Source of the DNA: an uncultured Ignavibacteriota bacterium
GTDB lineage: Bacteria > Bacteroidota > Ignavibacteria > UBA10030 > UBA8401
Direction: 5' to 3'
DNA length: 34,714 bases
NCBI GenBank assembly: GCA_903907305.1
Contig: CAIVNT010000636.1
Span: forward strand, 1 to 34,714
Under the pieces are notes generated by a model. It did not search any database. It saw only the letters and a list, made by a program, of their open reading frames with translations, and was not told where the DNA came from. Below, one piece after another: positions 7,463 through 28,750 of this stretch (the first letter of the stretch is position 1; every line of letters begins with the position of its first letter). The translations under genes and the position numbers were made by a program.

Positions 7463-8176
7463 TTATCTCCATTCATTCAGGAGTATCGGTTTGATGATCT
7501 TGGTAAACTCACGATAGGTGTCATCCTTGAAGTGGAGTTTATCGTCAAGATACAGTTCCATCCTCGCTGATCCTGTGGAATCGAACAGGATGGGATTCAC
7601 ATCGATGAATCTTCTTGTCTTCACGAGCGAGCAATAGTTCTTCACAAACGCATTCACAGAATCGATCGCACTCCACTTCGCTTGTCGAGACGGTGCTTTG
7701 TTCACTGAAACAAAAAAGATCTTCACTCCCGGCAGTTTCCGTTCCGCTTTCTCGAAGAACGCCTTGATGTTCCCCGTAATACTGTCCACCGGTACCGAAC
7801 CGCCGGCATCGTTGCTGCCGCAATAATAGACGATGATCTTCGGTTTATACGGCAGAACGATCTTATCCATATAGTATAACACTTCATGCGTGCGGGATCC
7901 GCCGAAGGCGCGATTGTACACCGGCAGCGGCGCCATATGTTCCTTTAATTGTTCCCACTTTCTAAAGATGCTGCTCCCGATAAATTCGATGGAGTGCATC
8001 GGCGGCGGTTGGACGGAATCTTCCTTGAGAAATGCATCAATAGCGGATTGGAACCGCAGTTTCCCTTTCACAGATGTGGAATCCTTCGCGGGAAGGAACT
8101 GCAGCGAAAGAACGATCATCGTACAAACGGTGAGCCACCGTAAGACATATATTGTATTTGTGTTCATCGAAATCAT
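7463..8176 (-). CDS. SGNH/GDSL-type hydrolase (probable carbohydrate O-acetylesterase), secreted
   Basis: SGNH blocks are present: IEFIGSSI (block I Ser), FGGSRT (block II), YCGSNDA (block III GxND) and DDKLHF (block V DxxH). The 5' part of the track ORF (to 8320) overlaps the SDR gene. ATG 8176 (MISMNTNTIYVLRWLTVCTMIVLSL, signal-like) lies 4 nt after the SDR stop. Confidence 0.7.
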   Translation of the reverse strand: MISMNTNTIYVLRWLTVCTMIVLSLQFLPAKDSTSVKGKLRFQSAIDAFLKEDSVQPPPMHSIEFIGSSIFRKWEQLKEHMAPLPVYNRAFGGSRTHEVLYYMDKIVLPYKPKIIVYYCGSNDAGGSVPVDSITGNIKAFFEKAERKLPGVKIFFVSVNKAPSRQAKWSAIDSVNAFVKNYCSLVKTRRFIDVNPILFDSTGSARMELYLDDKLHFKDDTYREFTKIIKPILLNEWR

Positions 8177-8180
8177 ATCA

Positions 8181-13242: not shown

Positions 13243-13361
13243 TCAAACATTGTACCGATGAGAAAAACAGTGTCGTCTTTTGAAGCAGTGTTACGATGGA
13301 TGGAATCGTTCGCCGAGTGAAGACTATCCGAAATCGAATTGAAGAATATCTGTAACTGCCC

Positions 13362-15197
13362 TTACTTTAGCAGCACCATCCGTTTTGTTCCGTGAAATTC
13401 ACCGGCGGCCAAACGGTAGAAATATACTCCCGATGGATATCGTGCCGCATTGAACGGGATCGAATAAGTTCCTGCGGGGCGGTATCCGTTCACGAGCGTT
13501 TCGGTAAGGACCCCCAATGCATTGTACACTTCAAGAAGGACCATCTGTGATAATGGAATGGAAAATGAAATGACCGATGACGGATTGAACGGATTCGGGT
13601 AATTCTGATGGAGTGCAAATTCCGACGGCTGCTGCAGTTCATTTTTTTTTATACCCAAAGAACCCTGATACTCAAACGCTCCTCTATCCACCCCGCCTAA
13701 AGAAGGGACGGGATTACCGAGGATATCCTTTGCCGGATGATTCGGGAAAAGGACGCCGGAGTTGATCACAGGAGAAGAAACCTGCAGCGCATATCCTGAT
13801 ATCGTGCCGATGCCGGTCGAAGCAGATCCCGCCGAAACGAATTTCGGATCACTCACAAGTTTGTTGGAATCTTCCGGTTCGCCTGACGGATGGAATCCAT
13901 AGAACGTGTTGTAATTGAACTCTCTCGTATATCCGCTCGTTCTGAAATCGTACGATGCATTCGAACTGAGATTATAGATAACATTATTCCGGAATGTATA
14001 ATTGCGCGTTCCGGTATTCACATTCCGTTCGGAGATGATGGTCGGAGAAAGTCCTTGTCCGATAAAAACGGTATTGTTATAGATCTGAACTGATGTAACG
14101 GGATAATTCACGCAGAAGATGATTCCTTTGTCGTTCTGACTGACGTTGTAGCGGCAGATGATATTGGAATCGGGCTGAGAATTACACGTCCAGAAGAGAC
14201 CATGACTGTTGTCGTGACTGTAACTGTACTGGAAAATGATATTCGAACTTTTCAGATCGGCATCGTACATGCTCCCGTCTCCAAAATCTCCTCCCTGCAG
14301 AGATGCTCTGTTGAAATATCCTTCGTTGTATTGGAACACTGTTCCGCTGCAGCTGGAAGTGAACATCGTATTGCCGGTCGTTTTCAGCGCTGTCTCATAG
14401 CAGACGTTCTTCTCGATCAGTCCGCCATCGAAGAGACGGATGATCATCGCGTTCTTGGCGATATGATGAATGGTATTATTTCGAATCACGACATTGGTGA
14501 ACCGGCGCTTGATCCAATCCGCACCACCCGGCGTATTCCGGAAGATAAGATTATCCGTATAGATCCCTGTATTGTCGATATTATAGATGCTGCAGTTTTC
14601 GATCACGATATCATCGAACCGTGTTGCCGCGCCGCGGTCCGTCGTTGTTTCGATCCCGATACCGGCTGTCCGTTTTGATGCATCATCATTCCCGACGGTC
14701 CCCTTCACATCGTGGATATCGAGATTGCGCAGAATGATATGTTCTACCAGACCGAAATCGGAGGCACTTATAAGCACACCGCGTCTGTCCCCGGCAACAT
14801 CGGCGGAGTTCGTGATCTCAAGATCACTGATCTCCCAGAACTTTCCGTTGTTCAAATGCAGCGTAGCGGAGCCGACGATGCCGTTCCCGTCGATCCTCGG
14901 TTTCTGCGAACCGCCATACTTGGTGACAACGATCGGAAGTTCCTTTATGCCGGAACCATGCGGAAGCAATTGACCGCTCCACACCGAACCGGCTTTCAAA
15001 TAGACAGTATCTCCCGGCTGGAACGTTGCTGCATTGACCTTCGCGAGACTCTTCCACGCAGCAGCGGCGGATTTCCCGTCATTCAGATCATTCCCGTTCA
15101 CTGCATCCGCAAAATACGCGGTGGATTGTCCGCTTCCGCATTGCGCGAGGACAAGGAACAAAACTGCGATCAGCCGTGATGCTGTCATGATTTCCAT
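13362..15197 (-). CDS. Secreted right-handed parallel beta-helix protein with T9SS C-terminal sorting domain (candidate polysaccharide lyase/hydrolase, family unknown)
   Basis: It has repeated PbH1-like turns (RNLDIHDVKG, IENCSIYNIDNTGIY, RNNTIHHIAKNAMII, NNVIYN) and a signal peptide (MTASRLIAVLFLVLAQCGSG). The C-terminus NYPNPFNPSSVISFSIP...GVYFYRL...KRMVLLK is a T9SS type-A CTD. The track start at 15227 is TTG. The first ATGs are 15197 and 15188. Confidence 0.6.
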   Translation of the reverse strand: MEIMTASRLIAVLFLVLAQCGSGQSTAYFADAVNGNDLNDGKSAAAAWKSLAKVNAATFQPGDTVYLKAGSVWSGQLLPHGSGIKELPIVVTKYGGSQKPRIDGNGIVGSATLHLNNGKFWEISDLEITNSADVAGDRRGVLISASDFGLVEHIILRNLDIHDVKGTVGNDDASKRTAGIGIETTTDRGAATRFDDIVIENCSIYNIDNTGIYTDNLIFRNTPGGADWIKRRFTNVVIRNNTIHHIAKNAMIIRLFDGGLIEKNVCYETALKTTGNTMFTSSCSGTVFQYNEGYFNRASLQGGDFGDGSMYDADLKSSNIIFQYSYSHDNSHGLFWTCNSQPDSNIICRYNVSQNDKGIIFCVNYPVTSVQIYNNTVFIGQGLSPTIISERNVNTGTRNYTFRNNVIYNLSSNASYDFRTSGYTREFNYNTFYGFHPSGEPEDSNKLVSDPKFVSAGSASTGIGTISGYALQVSSPVINSGVLFPNHPAKDILGNPVPSLGGVDRGAFEYQGSLGIKKNELQQPSEFALHQNYPNPFNPSSVISFSIPLSQMVLLEVYNALGVLTETLVNGYRPAGTYSIPFNAARYPSGVYFYRLAAGEFHGTKRMVLLK

Positions 15198-15227
15198 TTC
15201 TGTTGATGAGATCGGTGTCGTATGCAA

Positions 15228-15252
15228 GGACCGTCACACACCGTGACGGTCC
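15228..15252 (-). other. Perfect GC-rich intercistronic stem-loop without U-tract
   Basis: GGACCGTCAC (15228-15237) pairs with GTGACGGTCC (15243-15252), with a 5-nt loop. It lies 19 nt downstream of the esterase stop (15271) and about 30 nt upstream of the next ATG. No T-run follows it on either strand. Confidence 0.5.
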
Positions 15253-15270
15253 CTGTAAGGTACCGAACAA

Positions 15271-18200
15271 TTATTTTAAAAGAAGCATCTTCTTTGTCTG
15301 AACAACTCCGCCCGCTTTCAGACGATACAAATACAACCCCGATGAAAGATGTGCCGCATCGAATGTCACGGAATAATTCCCGGCATCCTTCACTTCATTC
15401 ACCAGAGTCATAATTTCCTGACCGAGGATATTGTAGACACCAATCTTCACATTCATCATTGCCGGCAGTTGGTACCGGATGGTGGTGGACGGGTTGAACG
15501 GATTCGGATAATTATTTGCCAAACCCACTTCTGTCGGGACCACCATCGGTGTTTCAACTGAAGCGATGGTGCTTGCCTTCAATAAGGTATACAACCACGC
15601 GACAGAAGCCTTATATGCTTCGTCCTGTTTTGCCGCATCATTATCGAGCGTGTGTCCGGTATTCGCAAATGTCTTCAGTCCGCTGGTGATACCGCGTGCC
15701 TGTGCCGTTGCGTAGATATATTTACTGGAATACTTGAACGGACCATCTGCGGGGATAAGATCATAGAACACCGTCGAATCGGTCAGTCCATGCACACAAT
15801 AGACCGGTACTTTACTGTTCTTCATCCATGCCGTATCACCGATGGCACCCCAGTTTGATATCACACCTGAAACACGGGTTGAAATTCCTGGTGTCCCGCG
15901 TTCCGGACCATCGAATGTTCCGCCGATGTTAGCCCAGTTGACAGAGTTGGGTGTTACTTCCGCTGAATCCAAATACGCAATATGCAGCGCGGTGATGGAA
16001 CCAGCGGAGCTTCCGGAAAGGAAAATTTGTGATGTATCAATTCCATATCCGACTCCATTTTTTCTCAGGAAACGGATCGCCGCTTTCACATCCTGCTGTG
16101 CTTTCATCATGATCTCGAACGATGCAGAATCGGTCGGTTGGTTCGATGTGGTGCGATAGTAGTTGATGTTCGCTACAACGTAACCGCGTTTTGCCAGACC
16201 GCCGGCAAAGATGTTACTGAATCCGCCGGGTGCATTCACCGCTTTGAATCCTCCGCCGGGAATGAAGAGCACCAGCGGGCGTTCCACTTTTGTATCGCCG
16301 GCACCTGTGTACAGATCCAATGTCTGTTTCACATCGGTACCGTATTGAATGGCGGACTGGATCTGATATGACGCGAATACTTCACTGTCGTACCGTTTCC
16401 CTGTACCCGGTGTCTGCGGCGTACCGACACCGATCGCGAACTGTCCGAATTTATCGACACCCGCCTGAGTTACTGTATCCGCTGCGAATGCCGGAATGGT
16501 GCCGACTGTATCCCACGCGGTTGAATTGTTCGCGCGATAGATAATCCTGCGTGTTGCCGGATCGGCGAATCCATTCGGTGCTACGATATCCAAACGGAAT
16601 GTCGGATTGCTGCTGCTGTCACTCGCGATCCCCCAATATCCGCCTTTATAACGGTAAAAGATATTGGACGGGAAACCGACCGAACCGGTATCACCGGCGA
16701 TGAAGCGGAATCCGATATTCCGAACGGCTGTCGGGGTGAGTTCGAACGTGAACACACCCGGTCTGTACTCTGTTAGTGATCCGACCGGCATAGTCTTCTT
16801 TCCGGTGTTCACAACGGTTCTGGTCAGCATTCCCGTTCCGTCCGTAATTACATAGGACGTATCGGAGTGGCCGCTGGGATTCGAGAAGACAAGATTGAAA
16901 TTCCCCAGTTTATATTTTCCCGATGTCATCGTCAGATTTCCTGTAACAACGAGAGACTTTGAAAGACTTGTTGTGACATTGCGGTTTCCGTTCGCCGAAG
17001 TGATATTGGAAACCGTATCAGGAATGGCATTTCCAGTGACCTGATTCGTCGGGCAGGAGTAGATATAATTTCCGTACCGTGAGAAACTCCGGGTTGTTGT
17101 CTGAATATCTCCGGCAGCACCAGTGGTGACGATGCCATCCGGCGAATATATCGCCAATGTTCCGGCAGAATCCAGCACGAAAGTTCCGTTACCGGTGACC
17201 TTGAAATTATTGCAGCGGAATCTTCCCTTTACTGTAAGTTTGTTCGAGCCAACGTTCAGATTCCCGCTCGCGAGGACATAATATCCTGAGCCCGAAGGAA
17301 GAACAACATCTTGTGTCAGCGTGATGCCGGCAGGATTGTCGAAATTGATCGTTCCGCCGTTCGTGCCGAAGACCGGAAGGAAATCAGCATTCGTGATATT
17401 CAATACTCCACCTGAAGCGACATCAACGACCGCAGAAAGAACGCCGCCGGTGCCGATGGTCAGTGTCGTACCGCCGGCTACGATCACTTTTGATTCGGTT
17501 CCGGAAACGACCCAAGGGGCGGTCAATGTTGTTGAAGCGGTATTGGTCAACAGATACAACTGATTGTCCAATCCGAAATCTGCAGGATGATTTCCCGTAC
17601 CGTTCGTATTGTCACCCCAGCTGGCCACATCGTCCACTGCACCGGTTCCATTGTAATAGAAGGGAGGAGGAGGCATCACTGCCGACCATACTGTTCCGAC
17701 ACGAATACCGTCAAGCACGAACACTGCACCCGTTCCCAAACTATCCCTGCCTTGAATGGAGAGACTCGCACCGGCAACGTTTGCACCAAGATCACTTCCG
17801 GCGTCTGTATTCGGACCGATGTTGGCGGTCGGTTCTACTTTTCCGGGAAGCGGATTCACGATCAATGAATATGTATCGTTCGTCGTCCCCGCTACGATAG
17901 CGTATTTCAAAACGACCAGATACGTTGTCTTGAACGTGTAGTTCGCAGCATCGTAGGTAACGGTCGCCGAAGCACTCTTGCCGCTGAGACCGAATTTCAG
18001 ATTTCCTGCGCCGTCATTCTTGATCCAAAACCGGCCGCGGGCTGCGTTATTGGAATAGAAGCAGACCACATATCCGCCGCCGGTGGTTGCGGTATCAACA
18101 CGGAGCATAAATGCTGCATATAAGTTGCCTGTCGCCGGTACGGTGATGGATTTGGAATACCGCTCCGTATAATCCGTCAGAAGCGCAGCATTGCCGACAC

Positions 18201-18408
18201 CCGAACCGATGTACCCCTGATAATTGAGTCCCGGTGATGTAACCGTGATCGAATTCCATACCAGCGCCGCTTTCGTCCAGCCGTTCGCTGAAAGATCGGT
18301 GCCAGCTGTATAATTAAAATCGTCCTGGATCATTATCTGTCCCTGCAGCTGCGGAACCGATAGGACCAGCGTGAGAAAGAAAAGAATGCCTAGTAAAGAC
18401 CTCTTCAT
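15271..18408 (-). CDS. Multidomain secreted alpha/beta-hydrolase esterase with T9SS C-terminal sorting domain
   Basis: 1045 aa. It has a signal peptide and an N-terminal ~220-aa module shared with the GH79-like protein. The middle region is beta-rich and Gly/Thr/Asn-rich. The esterase domain has the oxyanion motif LFIPGGGF, the nucleophile elbow LSGSSAGS and FANTGHTLD. The C-terminus is NYPNPFNPSTTIRYQLP...GLYLYRL...KKMLLLK. A strong SD (AAGGAGG) precedes ATG 18408. Confidence 0.7.
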   Translation of the reverse strand: MKRSLLGILFFLTLVLSVPQLQGQIMIQDDFNYTAGTDLSANGWTKAALVWNSITVTSPGLNYQGYIGSGVGNAALLTDYTERYSKSITVPATGNLYAAFMLRVDTATTGGGYVVCFYSNNAARGRFWIKNDGAGNLKFGLSGKSASATVTYDAANYTFKTTYLVVLKYAIVAGTTNDTYSLIVNPLPGKVEPTANIGPNTDAGSDLGANVAGASLSIQGRDSLGTGAVFVLDGIRVGTVWSAVMPPPPFYYNGTGAVDDVASWGDNTNGTGNHPADFGLDNQLYLLTNTASTTLTAPWVVSGTESKVIVAGGTTLTIGTGGVLSAVVDVASGGVLNITNADFLPVFGTNGGTINFDNPAGITLTQDVVLPSGSGYYVLASGNLNVGSNKLTVKGRFRCNNFKVTGNGTFVLDSAGTLAIYSPDGIVTTGAAGDIQTTTRSFSRYGNYIYSCPTNQVTGNAIPDTVSNITSANGNRNVTTSLSKSLVVTGNLTMTSGKYKLGNFNLVFSNPSGHSDTSYVITDGTGMLTRTVVNTGKKTMPVGSLTEYRPGVFTFELTPTAVRNIGFRFIAGDTGSVGFPSNIFYRYKGGYWGIASDSSSNPTFRLDIVAPNGFADPATRRIIYRANNSTAWDTVGTIPAFAADTVTQAGVDKFGQFAIGVGTPQTPGTGKRYDSEVFASYQIQSAIQYGTDVKQTLDLYTGAGDTKVERPLVLFIPGGGFKAVNAPGGFSNIFAGGLAKRGYVVANINYYRTTSNQPTDSASFEIMMKAQQDVKAAIRFLRKNGVGYGIDTSQIFLSGSSAGSITALHIAYLDSAEVTPNSVNWANIGGTFDGPERGTPGISTRVSGVISNWGAIGDTAWMKNSKVPVYCVHGLTDSTVFYDLIPADGPFKYSSKYIYATAQARGITSGLKTFANTGHTLDNDAAKQDEAYKASVAWLYTLLKASTIASVETPMVVPTEVGLANNYPNPFNPSTTIRYQLPAMMNVKIGVYNILGQEIMTLVNEVKDAGNYSVTFDAAHLSSGLYLYRLKAGGVVQTKKMLLLK

Positions 18409-18450: not shown

Positions 18451-19527
18451 TTAAAAACCAAATCCGAACGTGAGCATGTTCACATAATTGAACCGCCCGA
18501 CATTTGCGTAAGCATAATCCATTTTCAATTTCAGATCATCATCGATGGAATATTCCGCTCCGAATCCGAATGTATAACTCTCTTCATCATAATTGAACCG
18601 GTAACCGCCGCGAAGATAGATGTTCGAGAAAAAGAAATATTCCAGTCCGGCGTTCACTTTCTCCGGTCCATCATTCGGTTTCACATATTCAACGGCAACG
18701 GTCAGCCGCTGCTGATCTGTATTTGACGGCTGCAGAATGTCGTATGCGGCGCCGAGAATGAACATCATCGGCATCTTGATCTTTGCCGGTGCCTGGGCGA
18801 TCCGTCCTTCGTAGGAGAGGAACTCTCCGTCCGGACCGAAATTCTTTCCGAGCATGGAGATGCGAAGACTTCCGATCCCCGTCCAGTACATCGTGCCGAT
18901 ATCGAGCGCCCAGCTTCCCATTTTCGCGTCATCAATCTGCTGTTCTGTATACCGAAGATTTCCGCCGACCTGAAGGAAATCCGTGATCCGTCTGGAATAG
19001 AGCACGCCTATCGCAAGGTCATGTGCTGTGAACGTTCCCAGACCATCAGTGATCGGTACGATCCCAAGATCATTCCCTGCTGCGTCGAATCCCTGCGCAA
19101 CTTTTGTGCGGATCATATCTCCGTAATTAAGATAGATGCAGTTCACGCCGACGGTCCCCCATGCATCCAGATTCTTCACGAGAGAAAGACTGTTGTATTG
19201 GATGTCGGCGACCCAGTTCATTGTTGAAAGCTGAATATCTGCGCCGGGAATATCCGACACAGATGCAGGATTGTTGAATGCCGAATTCGCGTTGCCGTAT
19301 CCGAGCGAGGATTTCACACCGCCGAGAGCGGAGCTTCGTGCATCGGTCGGAAGTTTCAGGAATTGCCATCCTGCTGCTCCGACACGGCTGATCTCCATCG
19401 GATCCACTCCCCAGCCGACCTGATTGCTTCCAACCTGGGACTGCGAAAGGACCGGCATCAGCAGCAACAGAAGGATCGATGATTGATACATTTTCATAAT
19501 TGACCGCATAAATTTTCGTGAGCTCAT
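18451..19527 (-). CDS. Outer-membrane beta-barrel, PorV/PorQ-like family
   Basis: 358 aa with a signal peptide. The N-terminal motif GAAGWQFLKLPTDARSSALGG...SAFNNPAS resembles the PorV-family signature as I recall it (FL.i...aR..alGga ... NPA). It has alternating beta-strand character and the terminal FGFGF typical of OMPs. The ATG is 1 nt after the upstream stop. Confidence 0.6.
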   Translation of the reverse strand: MSSRKFMRSIMKMYQSSILLLLLMPVLSQSQVGSNQVGWGVDPMEISRVGAAGWQFLKLPTDARSSALGGVKSSLGYGNANSAFNNPASVSDIPGADIQLSTMNWVADIQYNSLSLVKNLDAWGTVGVNCIYLNYGDMIRTKVAQGFDAAGNDLGIVPITDGLGTFTAHDLAIGVLYSRRITDFLQVGGNLRYTEQQIDDAKMGSWALDIGTMYWTGIGSLRISMLGKNFGPDGEFLSYEGRIAQAPAKIKMPMMFILGAAYDILQPSNTDQQRLTVAVEYVKPNDGPEKVNAGLEYFFFSNIYLRGGYRFNYDEESYTFGFGAEYSIDDDLKLKMDYAYANVGRFNYVNMLTFGFGF

Positions 19528-19528
19528 G

Positions 19529-21574
19529 TTATTTGATGATCGCTATCTTCCCGACGGATTTTTCACCTTCGTGTCCTGCAACATGCGATTCCACGTGAAA
19601 GATGTAGATGCCGGGCTGAACATTCTGAGCAAAATCGGACAACATGTAATCCTTGCCGGATTGTGAACCCCAGGTTTCAATCCCCCCTCCGCTCGTGTGT
19701 TCGAGTGTTTTTACAAGATCCAGCGACAGAGTATAGATCCTGATGGTGCACAGTGCGGGGATGTTGACGAACGCGATCCGTTTGTATTCGGCGCTTTCTG
19801 CAAATCCGCTCACTTGACGGAACGGATTGGGAACGACGAGGATCTGTTTCTGTTCATTGGTGGGCGGCGGTTCTGCTGAAACGGGATAGAAACAGTAACC
19901 GGTCATTCCGCTTTCGTTCCCCAGTTTATCGATGCTGGTGACACAATAGCGGTAGGGAACATTCGGCTCGGACTGAATAAAATACTGAACGTTGGGTACG
20001 GTATCCGTTCCCGCTACAAGGAAACTATCCGCTTTCGTGTAATAGATCGAGTCGATCATCTTCCACGGTCCTTCGATAGAATTGCTGGACTGATAGATCT
20101 TGTAGGCAGCAAAATCCGCCTGCTTTGTCTGCGGATCCTTGTAATTCCTGTGAACAGCTTTCCAGGTGACCTGAACCCCCTGGATGCGTTGCCCATTCGA
20201 ATTCACGGCCGAAGGAACAACTTTCAGTTCGTTCGTATTTCCGACGCGCGGCGCATCGGCCGGTGTCGGAGGAGGAATGCTGCCGAACGGCAGTGCGAAT
20301 TTTCCTTTGATCAGATTCTTTGCCGCTGCAAAATTCTCCTTCAGATTGGCGATCCCTTCCGCTTTGAATCTCCGTGTTGCTTCATATCCTCCCTTAAGGG
20401 AAACATTCCTGTCCATTTGTCCTGCTGTGAAGATCTCGTACCAATGGATCGATTCCCCTTTTTTGATATCGAACGGTCCGATGGCATAAAGATATCGTGG
20501 ATTCCGTTCCCACTTACTTCCGGCTCCTGTGATACCGGAGTCCGCAGCATTTTTCCAGCTTGTTCTCGGCTGCTCATTAGTCGTGATGAAATTCACCAGA
20601 GTGGCATACTGCCCAAGTCCGTCATCATACCGCGGCGGCATCAATTCCAACGCTTCCGCTCTGCTGTCTGTCGATACGATCTTTCTCCAGATCTTTTTCT
20701 GTCCGAATTTATTCTTCGGAAGAGAGTCGAGGAAAAATGTGTATGCATAGACGTACGGAGAGTACAGTTTGTAATTGCGCGATCCCTGAATGCCGATATT
20801 CCCCGGATCACCGGCATTCCCTGTTGAATCACCGGGAGCGATGGAATAGACAGGCGCCGTTGTGGTCGGCGGAAGAGAAGTGCCGTCGTAAAAAATGAAT
20901 CCAAGAGAGTCACCGGAAACCTGATCCCACTCATATTCCTTATCCCAACCGACGGAGACTGAAGCGGGACGATATGGACCGTTCGGAGTGACCAGGCGCG
21001 CGTAATAAAAATCATTGAACGTCGTATCATCCGTATTGGTAAGCGTACATTCCATGATGACGAAATCGTCGTACTTCGGCTGGCTCCACACACGCACCGT
21101 TCCCGTGAGAGTGTATTTCATGTGCCGTTTCCCGGCTGCATCAAATTGATAGGAACCGATGTCGCCGGTGAGATATTCTTCGGCGCGCAGAGGATTCACA
21201 AGATTATAGTTCTGAGTGACGGCAGTCTGACCAAGTGCATACACATTCGGACTATTATAGATGACACTTCGATAGTACCAGCCCACAGGCTGTCCCGCAA
21301 CCATCGCGCCGTTATAGATGACATTCGCATCCCAGCCGCCGGCGGATTCACCTTGTGCATTATAATCGCCGGGATAGAGAGAAAGCCATTGATTGTTCCC
21401 GATGGTCGTTTCGCGGTCGAGTGCACCGTTCGGCGCGGTCTTCACCCAATACTTCGACCGGGTCAACCGTTCGGGATTGACGCTTTGCGCATACACAGCG
21501 GAACACATCACCGCGGCAAAAAGCACCGCACCGGTTACCGCACGCAAATTCCATTGATCCAATTTGATGTTCAC
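19529..21574 (-). CDS. Secreted 681-aa protein of unknown family with FlgD-Ig/T9SS-like C-terminal domain, encoded directly after the TonB-dependent receptor
   Basis: The track ORF (to 21745) has an Arg-rich 57-aa extension overlapping the receptor gene. GTG 21574 follows AGGAAG and yields MNIKLDQWNLRAVTGAVLFAAVMCSAVYA-QS (SPI-type signal, no lipobox). The C-terminus VVPNPFRQ...CTIRIYTLSLDLVKTLE...GIYIFHV...GKIAIIK resembles the CTDs of the neighbouring T9SS cargo proteins. I recognised no catalytic motif. Confidence 0.55.
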   Translation of the reverse strand: MNIKLDQWNLRAVTGAVLFAAVMCSAVYAQSVNPERLTRSKYWVKTAPNGALDRETTIGNNQWLSLYPGDYNAQGESAGGWDANVIYNGAMVAGQPVGWYYRSVIYNSPNVYALGQTAVTQNYNLVNPLRAEEYLTGDIGSYQFDAAGKRHMKYTLTGTVRVWSQPKYDDFVIMECTLTNTDDTTFNDFYYARLVTPNGPYRPASVSVGWDKEYEWDQVSGDSLGFIFYDGTSLPPTTTAPVYSIAPGDSTGNAGDPGNIGIQGSRNYKLYSPYVYAYTFFLDSLPKNKFGQKKIWRKIVSTDSRAEALELMPPRYDDGLGQYATLVNFITTNEQPRTSWKNAADSGITGAGSKWERNPRYLYAIGPFDIKKGESIHWYEIFTAGQMDRNVSLKGGYEATRRFKAEGIANLKENFAAAKNLIKGKFALPFGSIPPPTPADAPRVGNTNELKVVPSAVNSNGQRIQGVQVTWKAVHRNYKDPQTKQADFAAYKIYQSSNSIEGPWKMIDSIYYTKADSFLVAGTDTVPNVQYFIQSEPNVPYRYCVTSIDKLGNESGMTGYCFYPVSAEPPPTNEQKQILVVPNPFRQVSGFAESAEYKRIAFVNIPALCTIRIYTLSLDLVKTLEHTSGGGIETWGSQSGKDYMLSDFAQNVQPGIYIFHVESHVAGHEGEKSVGKIAIIK

Positions 21575-21593
21575 TTCACTTCCTTTGAAAAGA

Positions 21594-24500
21594 TTAAAAT
21601 TCCACCGTCGTGCCGAAATAGATCTGCCGCGGATTATTCGTATACCAATTCCATTCCGTCGGCTCCTTGGTGGTCGCCTGAAACGGCAGGATACCGCTCG
21701 CCATATAGTTATTGAGATTTGTCGAACCTTCGCTGAATTGAACAAGATGTTTCTGATTGAAGAGATTGGTGATCTGGATGAAATATTTCATTGTAATACC
21801 ATCAGAAAGATGGATGCTCTTATTGATATTCATGTTCGTGCTCCAGCGGTCCTCCCAACGTCTGTTGTTCGGAAGCTTGACCCCCTGATAATCGGTGGGA
21901 TACCAAGTGAATTCATTCCCGCGCGCCCACCTTGTGGAGGAACTGAGTACCCAACTGCCCAGCGGATTGAAGCCATAGACATCGGGACCAAAATCTTCAG
22001 GACTCACCATCGTCAGCTTGAACAGGCCGGAGTTGCTCGGATTCCACAGCATGTCGTTCACACCGATGCCGCCGCCGTCCGTATTGTTCGCACCTGCGAA
22101 AACATTGTCCGCAAGCGGAACTCCGGTCGCATCCGAGGTCTTGAACAGTTTGCTGTCGTGATACCTTCCGGTTGCCAGGTACGAGAGCGTATAGCCAAGT
22201 TCAAAATTCACAGCATGGAACTGGGATTTCAGCTTCAATTCCAAACCGCGGACATCCGCCCACGCACCGTTCACCGTCGTGGTGAAATTGCCGATATATT
22301 TTCCCGGATCACGGTTGTCTGCCTGGAACGGATCGCCGTACAGACGCACATCAACATTGCCGCCGGATTGTTTGATCTCTCCTGTTGCAGGTCCCTGGTC
22401 TATCCCGAGCGACGTGAGATCTTTGCCTTCTTTATAATACATCGTTGCTTCCAGCATTAGGAGATCGTCGATATTCTGAACGATACCAACCTCATACTGT
22501 GTCATCTTCTCCCATGTCAGCGCGGGGTTGCCGACCTTCGCGCCGAGATAGCGATACGTGACGAGCAGACTTTCAGGAAGATCGAGATTTGAATTGAGTC
22601 CGTTCGCTTTAATGATGTCATCCAAATTGCCGGTCGATCTGTTGTCGGTCCACACAACAGGATTGGAAAGGATCTTCACCCATGAAGGGCGCTGATTGAA
22701 GATGCCGAACATAAAATGAAGCACCGTTGTTTCAGTGATCGGGTGCGAGATGCCGATGCGGGGTGAGAACGCCGTTCTTGTCGGAGTACGGACATATGCC
22801 GAGCCGCTTCCGTCCGGTCTATAACCGATCAGTCCTGTCTTTCCGGAATTCCCGTCTGTGTATTGCGAGATCATAAGCGGGTCATAAAAATCTTTGGACA
22901 CATTTTTGTTCGCATTGAAGAAATCGAAACGGATGCCGGCATTGAGCACCATTCCTCCCACTTCTATCTTGTCCTGCACATAGGCCGAGCCTTCATACGG
23001 ATGATCGATGATCGGAATGATATCATTCACCTGCACATACGGGGATGACAGCACGTTCCCTTCGTGGATCAGTGTCTGCACTTCCTGCAGAGAGAAGATC
23101 AATCCTGTCTTCACAAGATTAGATTTATTCACCTGACTCGTCAGGTCGGCCTTCACGCTGTAGTTCTTCGTCTTCGATTCGCTCCTCCAGATATCACCGG
23201 CATATCCCCAGCGCTGCGTGTCGAACAGATTCGATGTCGGCGGTTTCCCGAACGAAGGGAGCCACACTCCATAGGAGAGGACCGAATCGGTCGGCGAAGG
23301 AAGTCCGTACGACACGAACTGCGCGGTCTGAGCGATCTCGGTGAAATCAAGATGGTATTCCATTTGACTGTGCTGGAATGCCAGATTCAGGAAAGTTTCA
23401 GGACTGAACACCTGTGTCAGTTTTGCCTGAAGATTCAGAAGCTGTGCCCGTTCGGGAGCGCGGACAGTACTGCCGTCGCCGAAACTTCCGCCGTTATTCG
23501 CCGGACCATAGAGCCAATATTTGAATTTATTGTAGGGATCATCGATGAACGGCAAAGACTGCGATGCATTGTCGGCAACGATCGTTTCGGATGACTGATA
23601 GCTTGTCCGCGGTGCACCGGAGTTCTTGAACTTGGTGAACATTCCGTTCACACTGACAACGGTCGTGCTGGCCGGTGTCCAATCAAGTGAACCTTGAAAA
23701 GTCATATCCGGGTTGTATTTCATAGAAGAGGGATAGATTCCCACTCCTTCCTTATAGCGGCCGGAGAGCAAAAAACTTAATTCGGGAATGATCGGTCCAT
23801 AGATCGTCACTTCTTTTTCCCATTCCGCTCTGTCGGTATAATCGAATTGCGGGAACCGCTTACTGTCATTGATGAACGCTTTCCACCAGTCCGCTTTCTG
23901 CTGCGGGGTCATCTTTGCGAATTTGCCGTCACCGAGATTTCCTTTTTGTGATTCACCCGGCGCCATCCATTGTGTTCTCCATGTCCTGGACGTGTCCCAG
24001 AAATCTGGTGTTGTCATCACGGTGTGGAACACATCATTCTTATCAAAGATGTTCCTTCCCCAATGATATTTATCCGCCGGACGGTTCTTGTAGGTCGCCA
24101 CAGCATGGATCTGATCCGTCGCTTTCCGAGAGACAATATTGACGATCGCTCCGTTCGCCTGTCCGTATTCCGCATTCCATCCGCCGGTGAGCACTTCGAT
24201 CGCCTGAACGGTGGAAAGGTTTACCGAGGCAAAATTCGTATTCGAACCGACATCGCGAAGATCGAGACCATCCACGCGGTATGACACATCGCCGCCGAAA
24301 CTTCCCCTGATGCCACCGTTGATATTTGTGGAGTTTTGGTCCGCGATCACATCCTTCACTTCCTTGACCCATCCGTTCGAGATCTCTTCCCTGGAGACGG
24401 TCTGTTTACTTGCGGTCAGATCGAGTTCCACTTTCGGTTTTTCAGCAACGATCGTCACTCCCTCGGCTTCGATCGCTTCCTCGGTCAATTGGAAGTTGAT

Positions 24501-24800
24501 GATCGTCGTCTGATCGATCCTCACTTGAACTGAGGTCTGCGTCACTTTCTGATACCCGATGATGGATGCGGTAACTGTGTGTGAACCGGCCGGAACATTG
24601 ATGATGTAATAATCGCCGGACAGATCGGTGAGAGCACCCAGCTTCGTCCCCTTCACAACAACAGTGACACCCACCAGCGCTTCGCCGGTCGTCTTATCTT
24701 TGATCCTGCCGGAGATCTTTCCCGTATTATCCGCGTAGAGAATTCCGCAGACGAGATTCGTCAGCGCGGCGATTAAGAGCACAGTTCTTTTAATTCCCAT
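21594..24800 (-). CDS. TonB-dependent outer-membrane receptor, SusC-like architecture (CarboxypepD_reg-like N-domain + plug + barrel)
   Basis: GKISGRIKDKTTGEALVGVTVVVKGTKLGALTDLSGDYYIINVPAGSHTVTASIIGYQ is the carboxypeptidase-regulatory-like domain. It is followed by a plug (VEVLTGGWNAEYGQANGAIVNIVS) and a long barrel ending TTVEF. The likely start is ATG 24800 (MGIKRTVLLIAALTNLVCGILYA). The track ORF extends to 24860. Confidence 0.88.
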   Translation of the reverse strand: MGIKRTVLLIAALTNLVCGILYADNTGKISGRIKDKTTGEALVGVTVVVKGTKLGALTDLSGDYYIINVPAGSHTVTASIIGYQKVTQTSVQVRIDQTTIINFQLTEEAIEAEGVTIVAEKPKVELDLTASKQTVSREEISNGWVKEVKDVIADQNSTNINGGIRGSFGGDVSYRVDGLDLRDVGSNTNFASVNLSTVQAIEVLTGGWNAEYGQANGAIVNIVSRKATDQIHAVATYKNRPADKYHWGRNIFDKNDVFHTVMTTPDFWDTSRTWRTQWMAPGESQKGNLGDGKFAKMTPQQKADWWKAFINDSKRFPQFDYTDRAEWEKEVTIYGPIIPELSFLLSGRYKEGVGIYPSSMKYNPDMTFQGSLDWTPASTTVVSVNGMFTKFKNSGAPRTSYQSSETIVADNASQSLPFIDDPYNKFKYWLYGPANNGGSFGDGSTVRAPERAQLLNLQAKLTQVFSPETFLNLAFQHSQMEYHLDFTEIAQTAQFVSYGLPSPTDSVLSYGVWLPSFGKPPTSNLFDTQRWGYAGDIWRSESKTKNYSVKADLTSQVNKSNLVKTGLIFSLQEVQTLIHEGNVLSSPYVQVNDIIPIIDHPYEGSAYVQDKIEVGGMVLNAGIRFDFFNANKNVSKDFYDPLMISQYTDGNSGKTGLIGYRPDGSGSAYVRTPTRTAFSPRIGISHPITETTVLHFMFGIFNQRPSWVKILSNPVVWTDNRSTGNLDDIIKANGLNSNLDLPESLLVTYRYLGAKVGNPALTWEKMTQYEVGIVQNIDDLLMLEATMYYKEGKDLTSLGIDQGPATGEIKQSGGNVDVRLYGDPFQADNRDPGKYIGNFTTTVNGAWADVRGLELKLKSQFHAVNFELGYTLSYLATGRYHDSKLFKTSDATGVPLADNVFAGANNTDGGGIGVNDMLWNPSNSGLFKLTMVSPEDFGPDVYGFNPLGSWVLSSSTRWARGNEFTWYPTDYQGVKLPNNRRWEDRWSTNMNINKSIHLSDGITMKYFIQITNLFNQKHLVQFSEGSTNLNNYMASGILPFQATTKEPTEWNWYTNNPRQIYFGTTVEF

Positions 24801-24856
24801 GATATTTTTCCACATAACTGATTTCATTACATACTCTATGATCGGTATCGATTGCT

Positions 24857-27235
24857 TCAATGCATGCTCAGATTCGCTGTCAGACGGATATCCGCAGACG
24901 AACTTCCGATCATGACCGTAAAGAGACCCGGCTCAACGACGAATCTGTTGTTCCGGTCAAGCAGAGACAGATCGGATGAAGTGATGGTGAACCGGACATG
25001 TTCCTTCTTCCCCTTGGGGATGCTGATCCGTTTGAACCCGCGAAGATTCTTCACGTATGTGGTGACACTGCTTGTGACATCGTGCAGATACAGCTGCACC
25101 ACTTCGTCGCCATCCATCATCCCCGTATTCTCAACATCGAACGAAACTTCCACATCGCGGCCGATCGATTGATCTGACGGTGTAACGGACAAATTGGAAT
25201 ATTTGAATTCGGCATAACTCAAACCGAAACCGAATGGATAGAGCACATCACACACCGACGTGGGATCACCGATCTCCGATCCCGGTTTATAGGGGAAATT
25301 CAATGGTATCTGTCCGACGGTCTTCGGAAATGTGACCGGAAGTTTTCCTCCCGGATTATAATCTCCGAACAGAACATCGGCGACAGCCTCGCCTCCCCAT
25401 TTTCCGGGGAACCATGTTTCGATGATCCCGGGGACATTCTTGTCGATCCAATTAATGGTGACGGGACGGCCGTTCACGAGAATGACGACCGTCGGTGTTC
25501 CGGTTTCAACAATCGCCTTTACAAGATCGAGTTGATATCCGGGGAGGTCAAGACTTGTGCGAGACTTGGATTCTCCCACGATACGTTCATCATCACCGAG
25601 CACAACAACGGCCACATCCGATGTGCGGGCCATTGCTTTCGCTTTTTCGATCTCAGTTAGTTCCGCTGCATTCATCGGTGAAGGAAGGATCTCGCTCTCC
25701 GGCCAATTTGAATCGAGCAGTTCGCATCCTTTCGTGTATTTGATCTCGATGGATGTTCCGGCTTTCTTTTTCAAACCTTCCAGGATCGAAGTGACATCGA
25801 TCCTGTTTGGTCCATAACGGCTCACCGATGATTTTTTTGCATCTGCATTCGGACCGGTTACGAAGATGGAACGGATATTCTTCTTCAGCGGAAGGATGTT
25901 CCCTTTGTTCTTCAGAAGAACGATAGATTTTCTCGAGGCTTCCAATGACACGTTCTGATGTTCGCGCGATGCGACCACACTATCCGCCTGCAGAGGTTGC
26001 GGAACATACGGCTGATCGAACAGTCCGAGCCGGAATTTTACCCGAAGGACATCCGCGACACGTTCATCGAGCATTGTCAACGGGATCGTCCCTTCCTTCA
26101 CCAACTCTCTCAGCGGCAGAATGAAATCATCCGAAGGTGTGAACTCCGTCCGAACATTCAATCCCCCTTCGACTGACTGACGCACGGCATCTTTGGCATC
26201 ATTCGCCACATGATGTTTGGTGAAAATATATTCTACCGCTTTACTGTCCGACACGACATATCCTTTGAATCCCCATTCCTTCCGGAGTTTCTTGATGAGA
26301 AAATCGCTGTTTCCTGTGATCGGAACACCGTCATAATCATTATAAGAACTCATCACTCCCAGTACATTCGCTTCAACGACCGCTGCTTTGAACGGGGCGA
26401 GATACATCATTTCGACTTCACGCGGCGCTATATGCGGATCGGTCCGTGCTTCACCGTCACGGCCCCCCTTCGGCGCGCTGTAGACAGCAAAATGTTTAAC
26501 GGTGGCAGCAACGTTACCGGATTGAATTCCCTTGATCTGCGCGACACCGAGTTGTGAAACGAGGAACGGATCCTCGCCGTAACACTCCACAACCCTTCCC
26601 CACCGCGGATCGCGGGCAAGATCAAGGATGGGTGAATACACATTCGAGAAGCCGAGCACTTTCGCTTCGCTTCCCGTGATCGCACCGATACGTGAGACCA
26701 GATCGATATCCCATGTTGCTCCAACACCGAGCTGTGATGGAAATGACGTTGCGCCGTGCTGACAGAGTCCACGGTTCCCTTCATTGGAGAAGTCCACCGG
26801 AATCCCAAGTCGTGTCTCCTCAACGAAAAACCGCTGTACCTGATTGATCGCCGATGCGTGCTTGGACGGAGGCCATGAATATTCTGTTGTGGTATTCGTG
26901 CGGTCGAGACCGTTCAAATGCTCGTCGATGTTCGCGATCCCGTCCTTCCAGATCTCATTCTTCCAGAGCGGAGTAGGAAGTTCATCTTTCAGCACTCTTC
27001 CAAATCCGTAGAGTGTTGCCATCTGATTCGTCTTTTCATTCACCGTCATCAAGCTGAGAAGATTCTTCACCCGTTTATCAATATCGATTTTCGGATCCTC
27101 ATACGGGTCCTTCGCACCATTCTTGTTCAGATCGATCCAGTCGGAACGGTACATCGCATCTTTCGCCGTCCCGCTTTTTTGAGCGGAAGCAGTGACAAAC
27201 AGCAGAACTGCAAAACCAAAGAAATATATTTTCAT
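24857..27235 (-). CDS. bglX: Glycoside hydrolase family 3 beta-glucosidase (BglX-like), periplasmic/secreted
   Basis: 792 aa with a signal peptide. It has the GH3 nucleophile motif GFKGYVVSDSKAV, KHFAVYSAPKGG, and a C-terminal Fn3-like domain. No T9SS CTD is present. Confidence 0.88.
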   Translation of the reverse strand: MKIYFFGFAVLLFVTASAQKSGTAKDAMYRSDWIDLNKNGAKDPYEDPKIDIDKRVKNLLSLMTVNEKTNQMATLYGFGRVLKDELPTPLWKNEIWKDGIANIDEHLNGLDRTNTTTEYSWPPSKHASAINQVQRFFVEETRLGIPVDFSNEGNRGLCQHGATSFPSQLGVGATWDIDLVSRIGAITGSEAKVLGFSNVYSPILDLARDPRWGRVVECYGEDPFLVSQLGVAQIKGIQSGNVAATVKHFAVYSAPKGGRDGEARTDPHIAPREVEMMYLAPFKAAVVEANVLGVMSSYNDYDGVPITGNSDFLIKKLRKEWGFKGYVVSDSKAVEYIFTKHHVANDAKDAVRQSVEGGLNVRTEFTPSDDFILPLRELVKEGTIPLTMLDERVADVLRVKFRLGLFDQPYVPQPLQADSVVASREHQNVSLEASRKSIVLLKNKGNILPLKKNIRSIFVTGPNADAKKSSVSRYGPNRIDVTSILEGLKKKAGTSIEIKYTKGCELLDSNWPESEILPSPMNAAELTEIEKAKAMARTSDVAVVVLGDDERIVGESKSRTSLDLPGYQLDLVKAIVETGTPTVVILVNGRPVTINWIDKNVPGIIETWFPGKWGGEAVADVLFGDYNPGGKLPVTFPKTVGQIPLNFPYKPGSEIGDPTSVCDVLYPFGFGLSYAEFKYSNLSVTPSDQSIGRDVEVSFDVENTGMMDGDEVVQLYLHDVTSSVTTYVKNLRGFKRISIPKGKKEHVRFTITSSDLSLLDRNNRFVVEPGLFTVMIGSSSADIRLTANLSMH

Positions 27236-27244
27236 CGTCAGATA

Positions 27245-28666
27245 TTATTGAGTTTTTTTAGCATCGAAATAATCGATGATACCGTACACATTTGTGTTGA
27301 CCTCTTTCATCTCTTCCAGCAGCGGATAATACGGCGTGAAGTTATTATCCACGATCCCCTTGTTCGCATCGGCATTCGAGGGATCAGCTTTTTTATCCGT
27401 CGGATCGTTATCCTGATATTTGAACCAATGCCATCCTACAACGACCTTCGATTCGAGCAGAGCCAGCGTGAAATTTTGATAGAAATATCCGCGGTCTTTT
27501 TGGGTGGGAACGATCCAGCCTGCACCTGTTTGATTCTTCAGTCCTGAATCCTCTGCCTTCGTGTACCATTCCGTGATGAGGATGGGCTTACCGGACCATT
27601 CGGACCACTTCACCAAACGATCATTTTCCGGTGTCCAAACATCATAATAATTCACCGAAACAGCATCCATAAATTTGCCCGCACTTTCGAAGACCGGTCT
27701 TTTTTTGATGATATCTCCATGGAACCTGCAGCCGAGATACAGATGATTAGGGTCGTATTTCTTGATCGCTTTGGAAACAATAGAGAAATATCGTCCGGAC
27801 ATATACGCAAGGAATGCGCTTTTATCCTTATCGGTAATAGCGGAGACGGCTATCCGTTTTTCGCTCAGCCATTCTGTGGCCGCACGGTTACCGGGATCCT
27901 TCTCGCTGAGCCGCAAATATCTCTCCAGCGCATCATCCGGAAACGGCATTTCATTATCGGAGAAGTAACCGAGAAGATTCTTCTCGTCCTTATACTGTAG
28001 AGCTTCAGCAGCTTCCGTGTCGCAGTATTGTTCAAATTCCGGATCGAAGACGAAGATGAGATCGCTCGGATATCCGGTATGGCCCGGCTGCTGATATGTT
28101 CCGCCGCGTTTCTTCCCATACCCTGCCATGAAATTGAATCCGCGTGTATAGATCAGATGGGTCGGTGATTCCTTAATGAGGTCCGCATCGGACCAGTTGC
28201 CTGTTCCGTTGAATCCGATCTTCGACAACAACTGAGCTGTTGAATCGAGCCATATCTTTTTTGTTCCGAATTTCCGGCAGAGTGTGGAATTCTGATTCTC
28301 CGATGTTCCCGGTTTCACGGTGACGATGGCTTTATGGATGAACAAATATCCATCCGGATCGACAAGCCACCAGCGGTCGCGGATCTTTTTGGGATAGAAA
28401 AATCCTGTCGCTGTCACCTTGGTATCGATCCTGCCGCCATACTGTGAATAGGCTGGTTCTCTCCGCGGGGAGAATCCCGAAAGATTCTGCAAGAGCTGTG
28501 TCGGATATTCATTCCACTCTCCATAGGTACGCGTTCCATCCTCGTGATAGATCTTCTTCTTTGCCTTCACCGTGATCTCATCCTGCGCCTGTGTCATGAA
28601 CGATCCTGAGAACAAGACGGCGAATATTATGAGAGCGATCTTAACTGATATTGTGTTCAAAGTCAT
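27245..28666 (-). CDS. Putative (beta/alpha)8 clan-GH-A-like glycoside hydrolase, family unassigned
   Basis: Signal peptide from ATG 28666 (MTLNTISVKIALIIFAVLFSGSFMTQA). Candidate acid/base YFSDNEMPF and candidate nucleophile PILITEWYT are spaced about 130 aa apart, as in clan GH-A. WWLVDPDGYLF is a motif I associate with GH50/GH42-like proteins. The family was not determined. Confidence 0.45.
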   Translation of the reverse strand: MTLNTISVKIALIIFAVLFSGSFMTQAQDEITVKAKKKIYHEDGTRTYGEWNEYPTQLLQNLSGFSPRREPAYSQYGGRIDTKVTATGFFYPKKIRDRWWLVDPDGYLFIHKAIVTVKPGTSENQNSTLCRKFGTKKIWLDSTAQLLSKIGFNGTGNWSDADLIKESPTHLIYTRGFNFMAGYGKKRGGTYQQPGHTGYPSDLIFVFDPEFEQYCDTEAAEALQYKDEKNLLGYFSDNEMPFPDDALERYLRLSEKDPGNRAATEWLSEKRIAVSAITDKDKSAFLAYMSGRYFSIVSKAIKKYDPNHLYLGCRFHGDIIKKRPVFESAGKFMDAVSVNYYDVWTPENDRLVKWSEWSGKPILITEWYTKAEDSGLKNQTGAGWIVPTQKDRGYFYQNFTLALLESKVVVGWHWFKYQDNDPTDKKADPSNADANKGIVDNNFTPYYPLLEEMKEVNTNVYGIIDYFDAKKTQ

Positions 28667-28750
28667 ACATCCCTTCTGGTTCGATCTTTTCTGTTTCTGC
28701 GGCACTGATACATTCACCGCCGGTACTGCACACTTCGGAATCGATCTCCG

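Follow-up and report, generated by a model that had tools for sequence, protein, structure and literature searches.

The stretch of DNA analyzed here, called the window in the following, comprises 34,714 nucleotides (nt) of contig CAIVNT010000636.1 from an uncultured Ignavibacteriota bacterium (assembly GCA_903907305.1). It contains, consecutively and on the minus strand, the genes for a TonB-dependent receptor, for a protein of 681 amino acids (aa), termed the partner, and for an outer membrane barrel of the PorV/PorQ family. A first-pass annotation, made from the letters of the sequence, had proposed that this triad is a receptor module in which the usual SusD lipoprotein is replaced by a protein exported through type IX secretion (by a system abbreviated T9SS). 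We conclude with high confidence that the three genes form one functional module. Their positions are as follows:

21594..24860, minus strand: TonB-dependent receptor; the longest open reading frame (ORF) starts with TTG at 24860 and has 1088 aa, while 1068 aa are encoded from the ATG at 24800
21575..21593, minus strand: spacer of 19 nt between receptor and partner, which holds AAGGAAG, similar to a ribosome binding site as read from the sequence
19529..21574, minus strand: 681-aa partner with a GTG start codon at 21574, a member of an unannotated family
18451..19527, minus strand: 358-aa outer membrane barrel of the PorV/PorQ family, which begins 1 nt past the partner stop codon

The TAA stop codon of the receptor gene, the spacer and the GTG of the partner gene follow one another directly, with AAGGAAG preceding the GTG, and a single nucleotide separates the TAA of the partner gene from the ATG of the barrel gene. 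An ORF check of the minus strand returned the same coordinates, spacings and sizes for the three genes as the first-pass annotation. Promoter-like sites were rarer than in shuffled sequence and terminator-like matches were found inside coding sequence only, in a scan that did not include Bacteroidota-type promoters.

Conservation and modularity of the triad

A search of 185,579 genomes, one per species, yielded 187 encoding loci. Of these, 80 were retrieved, and 84 loci in all were compared. The 80 loci stem from Ignavibacteriota, Rhodothermales, Latescibacterota, Calditrichota, KSB1, Neomarinimicrobiota and a few differently labeled metagenome-assembled genomes (MAGs). Every carrier encountered is a MAG, and a cultured host was not among them. 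With the window proteins as tblastn queries, the barrel gene was found directly downstream of the partner gene in all 84 loci, and the receptor gene directly upstream of it in all 81 loci that have upstream DNA, in every case on the same strand. The gaps are mostly 0-81 nt between receptor and partner and -4 to 53 nt between partner and barrel. This synteny is kept down to about 25-35% protein identity and across phyla. Adjacency and gene order are the same in at least six lineages that belong to the FCB (Fibrobacteres-Chlorobi-Bacteroidetes) group, which bears out the expectation that the triad is syntenic in related genomes. When barrel homologues were taken as the starting point instead, two of them, at 46-49% identity, were again located within triads.

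The partner is composed of an N-terminal head, a domain similar to Fn3, and a C-terminal tail that resembles T9SS sorting domains. A profile of the partner family was compared with 1.84 billion representative proteins and gave 4787 matches at E<1e-3, of which 1982 are below 1e-10 and 125 below 1e-30. Among the 150 matches listed, about 30 are full-length, and most share the Fn3 domain and the tail, or the tail alone, behind unrelated N-termini of 300-1100 residues. Four distant relatives of 621, 768, 1146 and 1262 aa were sampled, and a CarboxypepD_reg TonB-dependent receptor is encoded upstream of all four. A barrel of 312-324 aa follows in three of them, and the contig of the 1262-aa relative ends before this position. 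The barrels of the distant relatives pass the PorV/PorQ family model NF033709 with 155-197 bits, and no Pfam enzyme domain was detected in ten distant heads. Because the distant relatives retain receptor, tail and barrel together with unrelated heads, the first three are the constant parts of the system and the head is the exchangeable part. The 36 proteins with canonical sorting domains that are encoded in the same loci, as well as four in the window, lack a dedicated barrel; there is one barrel per locus.

In several genomes there are between two and four triads, and two of these stand in tandem. Two complete tandem triads lie on contig CAZYYD010000001.1 (L027 and L021, 166179-180218 and 180833-192615), and the MAG to which this contig belongs has at least four (L011, L019, L021, L027), which recalls the paralogous expansion of SusC/SusD. 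In two loci of MAG MFD02979.bin.3.125 (L028, L059) frameshifts split the triad genes into 3-6 tblastn pieces, which may represent long-read assembly errors or decaying copies. One locus (L005, CALROS020000076.1) is labeled as a Chitinophaga pinensis MAG and encodes proteins that are 95-97% identical to those of the window triad. This species label looks wrong, because the other close relatives of the triad are labeled as Ignavibacteriae MAGs.

Receptor, partner and barrel

The N-terminal part of the receptor has the following features:

24453..24716, minus strand: carboxypeptidase-regulatory-like domain, the N-terminal extension (NTE), aa 49-136 (PF13715, E 1.6e-19; PF13620, E 1.4e-17)
24441..24461, minus strand: GVTIVAE between NTE and plug, TonB-box-like by resemblance to the consensus
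24153..24422, minus strand: plug domain, aa 147-236 (PF07715, E 3.8e-6)

The receptor ends with a C-terminal Phe. It had been called SusC-like at first, and this description holds for the N-terminal architecture of CarboxypepD_reg domain and plug but not for membership in the SusC/RagA family. The score against the SusC/RagA model TIGR04056 is 53.1 bits, compared to a cut-off of 368, and only model positions 2-200 are covered. Weak scores on this model are common to all of 15 triad receptors from different phyla (best E 3.5e-22). When a profile of these 15 receptors was compared with solved structures, NTE and plug were matched, and never a SusC barrel. As judged from these comparisons, the receptor has a SusC-like front end, yet it is no member of the SusC/RagA family. 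The gene downstream of the receptor did not match SusD/RagB families, neither as a whole protein (E<0.01) nor in three pieces (E<10). The start of the receptor is ambiguous. The TTG at 24860 overlaps the stop codon of the upstream GH3 gene by 4 nt (24857-24860), and there are four in-frame alternative starts within 80 nt of the TTG (24782-24860); the ATGs at 24827, 24815 and 24800 are among the possible start codons. From the ATG at 24800 the signal peptide reads MGIKRTVLLIAALTNLVCGILYA. This ambiguity leaves the finding of the triad unaffected.

The 681-aa partner had no match in Pfam or NCBIfam, whether whole or in pieces, and thus hits neither an enzyme family nor a SusD family. When head, Fn3 domain and tail were isolated and compared with Pfam at E<10, noise was obtained only (Nakanori, E 0.22), and a sequence search of the PDB with the partner-family profile gave nothing meaningful. 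The 93 homologues have 650-730 aa, share 31-97% identity, and every one of them is named hypothetical. A confident AlphaFold2 model was generated from a 43-sequence alignment, with a predicted local distance difference test score (pLDDT) of 88 and a predicted template modeling score (pTM) of 0.85. Strands make up most of the model. Its parts are, in this order, a signal helix, a beta-rich head with a long helix at its end, the PPPTPAD linker, a sandwich similar to Fn3 and a C-terminal sandwich. The parts of the partner are:

21488..21574, minus strand: type I signal peptide, aa 1-29, ending in AVYA before a cleavage site followed by QS, without a lipobox (model helix 6-25; no conserved Cys in the 43-sequence alignment)
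20285..21487, minus strand: head, aa 30-430, a beta-supersandwich that ends in a long helix (head-only model, pLDDT 91.4, pTM 0.92)
20225..20284, minus strand: Pro-rich linker PPPTPADAP, of which PPPTPAD is conserved in the family alignment
19859..20224, minus strand: Fn3-like beta-sandwich, aa 451-572 (model strands 451-549; tandem Fn3/Ig matches in Foldseek)
19532..19858, minus strand: tail, aa 573-681, a long variant of the T9SS type A sorting domain that ends with VGKIAIIK (hhalign, conservation)
19784..19822, minus strand: first tail insertion FRQVSGFAESAEY, absent from canonical sorting domains (hhalign), a candidate partner-binding loop

A lipid anchor of the partner was considered and rejected, since the only Cys of the signal peptide, Cys24, lies outside of a lipobox and is unconserved in 42 homologues. 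This agrees with the first-pass annotation, which had also described the protein as apparently beta-rich and without obvious TPR-like helices; the model confirms both, and it includes a C-terminal sandwich similar to sorting domains. The SusD-like all-alpha fold of tetratricopeptide repeats (TPR) is absent from the model, and the Foldseek matches were confined to supersandwich and Fn3/Ig folds. After the predicted cleavage, both the partner (21485-21490) and the barrel (about 19435-19445; consensus ..AQ) have a mature N-terminus that starts with Gln. In the accessible part of the source, a Gln at the mature N-terminus is described as the Bacteroidetes "Q-rule" for substrates of signal peptidase I (PMC5837995), and the two proteins fit this rule, here in an Ignavibacteria-like genome.

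Foldseek searches with the whole chain of the partner were dominated by multi-domain artefacts (TM <=0.26), and therefore the head was modeled again on its own. The structures that it matches best are galactose mutarotase and the supersandwich domains that lie N-terminally in GH149, GH94, GH116 and GH65 enzymes (TM 0.33-0.42). According to the model, the head is a supersandwich of the galactose mutarotase type that is not enzyme-like and has no catalytic domain. Invariant residues in the head alignment include E132, D230, D256, E356, R357 and several Trp and Tyr.

Within the partner, conservation is highest in the tail. Its mean pairwise identity is 62%, whereas the head reaches 41% and the Fn3 domain 44%. 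Cleavable T9SS signals, in contrast to this tail, are usually poorly conserved. An ending in GKIAIIK had been taken for that of a T9SS-type tail, and this was substantiated by hhalign with a profile of 37 canonical sorting domains, which had been collected from proteins of the window and of related loci. The probability was 97% and the E value 9e-11; 77 columns are aligned end to end, beginning at PNPF and closing at the terminal K, and the query has three insertions. The tail shares the PNPF start, a G-x-Y strand and a K-x-x-x-K end at the extreme C-terminus with canonical sorting domains. In the model it forms an Ig-like beta-sandwich of seven strands (residues 579-679), and PorZ (5m11) was among the whole-chain Foldseek matches (E 9.6e-5). 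The three insertions are family-specific and comprise about 9 residues after PNPF (RQxSGFxDxxE), a further 9 or so (G.G..TWGS), and 5 residues (GHEGE). By this comparison, the tail is homologous to type A sorting domains and belongs to a distinct, divergent subtype. The first insertion has two invariant residues, Q587 and S589, next to a G590 with a conservation of at least 90%, and its residues 586-595 are the sole internal stretch with a pLDDT below 50 in the monomer model of the partner. A loop that is conserved and yet poorly modeled is typical of a region that becomes ordered upon binding to another protein, and this insertion (RQxSGF) is thus a candidate docking loop. A comparison of the isolated tail with NCBIfam at E<10 gave two weak matches, the C-terminus of PorU (the best, E 0.0035) and an M6-like cargo tail. 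PorU is one of two T9SS proteins known to keep their tail, which is bound to a barrel of the PorV type (PMC10202324).

The barrel of the window scores 158.8 bits on the PorV/PorQ family model NF033709 (cut-off 90), in agreement with its original designation as PorV-like. It reaches 111.6 bits on the PorQ model (NF033711, cut-off 220) and 34.8 bits on the PorV model (NF033710, cut-off 250). Eight other triad barrels gave 155-197 bits on NF033709, and all of them are below the equivalog cut-offs for PorV and PorQ. A profile of 27 triad barrels, compared with the PDB, matched PorV of F. johnsoniae (6h3i_F, E 1.2e-11) and next TodX of the FadL family (E about 1e-3); with the single barrel sequence nothing was found in the PDB, and PorV was reached with the 27-sequence profile only. 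The possibility that the barrel is a housekeeping PorV or PorQ was rejected, because the triad barrels score below the equivalog cut-offs and occur in several copies per genome. Most plausibly, the third gene encodes a dedicated anchor for the tail of the partner.

Proposed mechanism and alternatives

The triad of the window is part of an array of about 27 kb (7463-34677), which lies entirely on the minus strand and is similar to a polysaccharide utilization locus (PUL). The neighboring genes are:

24857..27235, minus strand: GH3 glycosidase, directly adjoining upstream (PF00933, PF01915, PF14310)
27245..31624, minus strand: GH50-like protein of 490 aa and GH79-like protein of 957 aa with a canonical T9SS sorting domain (PDB 5t3b, E 3e-60; GH79 beta-glucuronidases, E 5e-21; Por_Secre_tail)
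11818..18408, minus strand, downstream: BD-FAE esterase with a sorting domain, beta-helix protein with a sorting domain, and glucuronate isomerase UxaC (family scans)

The beta-helix protein is LnbX-like. Beyond UxaC, genes for a transporter of the major facilitator superfamily (MFS), UxuA, an SDR protein and a GDSL esterase follow, and at the other end of the array, before the GH79-like protein, a 996-aa protein is encoded that has a sorting domain as its sole match. The longest ORFs of the GDSL esterase (7463-8320) and the SDR protein (8181-9029), both on the minus strand, overlap by about 140 nt; the downstream one is probably extended too far at its start. As in the PULDB criterion, genes for carbohydrate-active enzymes and for sugar catabolism are co-localized on one strand. 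The tandem susC/susD pair of the PULDB definition is absent, and no SusD homologue was found among the 19 window proteins scanned with Pfam and NCBIfam. The array looks like a locus for a polysaccharide that contains glucuronate. The flanks of the triads were surveyed with 88 same-strand ORFs from 36 non-redundant loci. The most common assignments were Por_Secre_tail (18), BD-FAE (9), FlgD_ig (7), CBM96 (6), sulfatase (5) and carboxylesterase (4), and GH127 and PfkB kinases were also present. The substrate class probably differs between triads. A protein of 656-675 aa with DUF6785 and DUF6784 recurs one to two genes downstream of triads of the Latescibacterota type (L001, 14808-16790; L085, 4938-6965; L090, 9756-11732; L091, 12077-14047), and it may be an inner membrane partner in the uptake pathway.

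Gene linkage, domain anatomy and analogy to known systems suggest that the 681-aa protein is the surface partner of the receptor in substrate capture. In the mechanism that we propose, the partner would cross the inner membrane via Sec with the help of its type I signal peptide, and then the outer membrane via the T9SS, which would recognize the C-terminal sorting domain. Ordinary T9SS cargo loses its sorting domain, whereas the tail of the partner would be retained. The dedicated barrel of the PorV/PorQ family would bind the tail and thereby tether the partner at the cell surface without a lipid anchor. The head would then sit beside or over the receptor, capture the substrate, and pass it on for TonB-powered import, so that the partner would be a functional analogue of SusD or of a surface glycan-binding protein. 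In the window, the substrate would probably be oligosaccharides of a glucuronate-containing polysaccharide, freed by the neighboring T9SS-secreted enzymes. T9SS export, retention of the tail, its binding to the barrel, contact between head and receptor, and ligand binding are all steps that we infer. On balance, the mechanism as a whole, namely a T9SS-exported partner that is anchored to the barrel by its retained tail and captures substrate for the receptor, is the reading that we favor, with restrained confidence.

Several observations weigh against it. The sorting domain models PF18962 and TIGR04183 matched neither the whole partner nor the isolated 107-residue tail at E<10. They are thus blind to the tail, and its dependence on the T9SS rests on remote homology. 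The presence of a T9SS in this genome is indicated only by the canonical cargo proteins in the same loci. The structural matches of the head are weak (TM <=0.42, root mean square deviation of 8-13 Å), and therefore carbohydrate binding is merely suggested. One hint in favor of a coupling of head and receptor came from a mirror-tree analysis of 62 triads, in which the divergence of the head and that of the barrel region of the receptor formed the closest pair (r 0.98, partial r 0.75); a common phylogeny and comparable rates of evolution confound this result and limit its weight. A specific co-divergence of tail and barrel was not detected in this analysis (partial r about 0), which has low power for a tail that is nearly invariant and is not counted as evidence against the mechanism. 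In addition, triads of the Latescibacterota type adjoin genes for PhyH, SDR, ADH, thiamine pyrophosphate (TPP) enzymes and DUF6785, which are not obviously related to glycans.

Of the alternatives, the one that survives best, although we regard it as unlikely, is that the 681-aa protein is itself a surface-bound or secreted enzyme of an undescribed family, for example a glycoside hydrolase, lyase or esterase, that the barrel serves as its shuttle or anchor, and that the receptor imports the products. In favor of this, the head has many invariant acidic and aromatic residues, its nearest folds occur as domains in glycoside phosphorylases and hydrolases, galactose mutarotase, which has this fold, is an enzyme as well, and neighboring genes encode enzymes with sorting domains. 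However, the matching supersandwich in GH94, GH149, GH116 and GH65 enzymes is the non-catalytic N-terminal domain, and their catalytic (alpha/alpha)6 domain has no counterpart in the head. Searches of Pfam, NCBIfam and PDB sequences gave no enzyme family match for the partner, and the ten distant heads gave none either. Furthermore, one and the same head family occurs beside unlike sets of enzymes (sulfatases and GH116; esterases and CBM96; PhyH and SDR), which fits better to a generic partner of the receptor.

It is also conceivable, though quite improbable in our view, that the triad is a module for export or surface assembly, in which the receptor lets the 681-aa protein out or the three proteins build an adhesin or another surface structure. 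The Oar protein of Myxococcus is a TonB-dependent transporter that is reportedly required for the secretion of the protease PopC, and the layout of the triad receptor, a CarboxypepD_reg domain and a large barrel, is presumably that of Oar-type receptors. That the receptor lies outside of the SusC/RagA family and that the string of head, Fn3 domain and tail resembles the architecture of adhesins would be in accordance with such a role. Yet the partner has its own T9SS-type signal and a barrel of the PorV family, which makes a second export route unnecessary. Moreover, triads lie amid catabolic enzymes, sugar kinases and inner membrane transporters, as uptake loci do, and a genome can contain several paralogous triads with different enzyme neighbors.

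Slightly less probable still is that the barrel is a channel of the FadL/TodX type, which takes up hydrophobic compounds alongside the receptor, and that its link to the tail is incidental. PorV and PorQ proteins belong to the FadL superfamily, the barrel profile also matches TodX with an E value of about 1e-3, and BD-FAE, COesterase, GDSL esterase/lipase-like genes and PhyH dioxygenases are frequent neighbors. Against this, the fit of the barrels to PorV/PorQ models (155-197 bits) and to solved PorV (E 1e-11) is far closer than that to FadL/TodX, the barrel comes in every case directly after the protein with the special tail, whichever head the latter has, and the top conservation of the tail would be left without an explanation. 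Finally, the idea that the three genes are merely co-transcribed neighbors, without a physical or functional complex, is very hard to reconcile with an order, strand and tight spacing that are kept in all 84 loci and in relatives with unrelated heads.

Relation to known systems and significance

The triad has features in common with several known systems. As in SusC/SusD (RagA/RagB), a large receptor with NTE and plug is encoded directly next to a surface accessory protein, the genes are set among glycan-degrading and sugar catabolism genes, and several paralogous copies occur per genome. In contrast to SusC/SusD, the receptor of the triad fails the SusC/RagA model (53 bits versus 368), and its partner is neither a lipoprotein nor a TPR protein but is composed of beta-supersandwich, Fn3-like and sorting domains. 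In addition, a third gene, that for the PorV-like barrel, is obligatory in the triad, and anchoring is predicted to occur by a protein-protein interaction via the T9SS tail and not by a lipid.

Cognate PorV-like barrels are known to retain and anchor proteins with sorting domains, as exemplified by PorQ-PorZ, PorV-PorU, and PorP/SprF with type B cargo (PMC10202324). In PorQ-PorZ and PorV-PorU, a FadL-like barrel of the PorV/PorQ family holds a surface protein by an uncleaved C-terminal domain, and the same would apply to the triad with its type A-like tail. The best equivalog score of the window barrel is that for PorQ, and the best, albeit weak, NCBIfam match of the tail is the PorU tail. However, the barrels of the triads do not reach the equivalog cut-offs, a genome has several copies of them, they always occur together with a TonB-dependent receptor in catabolic loci and not with the T9SS machinery, and the tail, which has three insertions, represents a longer subtype. 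A second group is formed by type B substrates (SprB-SprF, PG1035-PorP), which need their own PorV-like barrel for secretion and anchoring and have a tail that is probably uncleaved (PMC10202324). Here, as in the triad (84 of 84 loci and the distant relatives), the gene of the cognate PorV-like barrel comes immediately after that of the substrate. In contrast to these pairs, the tail of the triad is type A-like and matches neither TIGR04131 nor PF13585, its barrel belongs to the PorV/PorQ family and matched no PorP/SprF model of NCBIfam or Pfam, and the triad includes a TonB-dependent receptor and is found in a context of nutrient uptake and not of gliding adhesins.

Precedents also exist for the proposed spatial arrangement. 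In the BAM complex of Bacteroidota, BamG is a 14-stranded FadL-like barrel that is docked against BamA and whose extracellular loops hold BamH, a protein exposed at the surface (PMC12578637). A FadL-like barrel can thus dock on another barrel and hold a surface protein, which makes BamG-BamH a structural precedent for the triad as proposed. In BtuB-BtuG, according to the accessible part of the source, a surface protein that is not SusD caps a TonB-dependent transporter (PMC10404256). Both systems are unlike the triad in that their proteins and functions are different, BamH and BtuG are lipoproteins, and a T9SS-type tail is absent.

The first-pass annotation knew of no characterized example of the triad. 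In line with this, the searchable full-text literature, a scope that excludes subscription-only papers, yielded no description of a TonB-dependent receptor combined with a sorting domain protein and a PorV-like barrel, and the triad is not mentioned in the genome papers on Melioribacter and Caldithrix, in a 2026 review on glycoside transporters, or in reviews on the T9SS. The triad is therefore a case of known parts and principles in an undescribed and widespread architecture. It is SusCD-like in its proposed function and similar to PorQ-PorZ and SprF-SprB in its logic of anchoring, and it is a member of neither group. For the capture of nutrients, it is probably an alternative to the SusC/SusD pair that does without a lipoprotein. 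Tentatively, and with less confidence than for the mechanism itself, we suggest that the triad forms an undescribed tripartite complex in much of the FCB group outside of the classical Bacteroidia and Flavobacteriia. In this complex, a PorV/PorQ-like barrel would be docked beside a non-SusC transporter and would hold an exchangeable head over it via a permanently retained sorting domain of a new class, with thousands of variants.

SusC/SusD pairs are the defining marker for the identification of glycan uptake loci. Because of this marker, Ignavibacteria, Rhodothermia, Latescibacterota, Calditrichota, KSB1 and Marinimicrobia have been scored as poor in such loci, and nonetheless these lineages carry many TonB-dependent receptors and T9SS-secreted enzymes. 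If the proposed mechanism is true, the triad would be a new genomic marker of nutrient uptake loci in abundant and mostly uncultured bacteria of sediments, soils and the sea. It would also provide a function for many proteins that are now called hypothetical, in about 2000 representative clusters at E<1e-10; no Pfam domain above threshold was present in the 93 close homologues or the 10 distant relatives examined. Retention by a dedicated barrel would be a third mode of fixing proteins to the cell surface, after lipid anchors and attachment to anionic lipopolysaccharide (A-LPS), and the principle of the cognate PorV-like barrel would reach beyond the T9SS machinery and gliding adhesins to nutrient import. 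If the tripartite complex indeed exists, it would be a lipoprotein-independent counterpart of SusCD, in which type IX secretion is directly tied to the import of nutrients.

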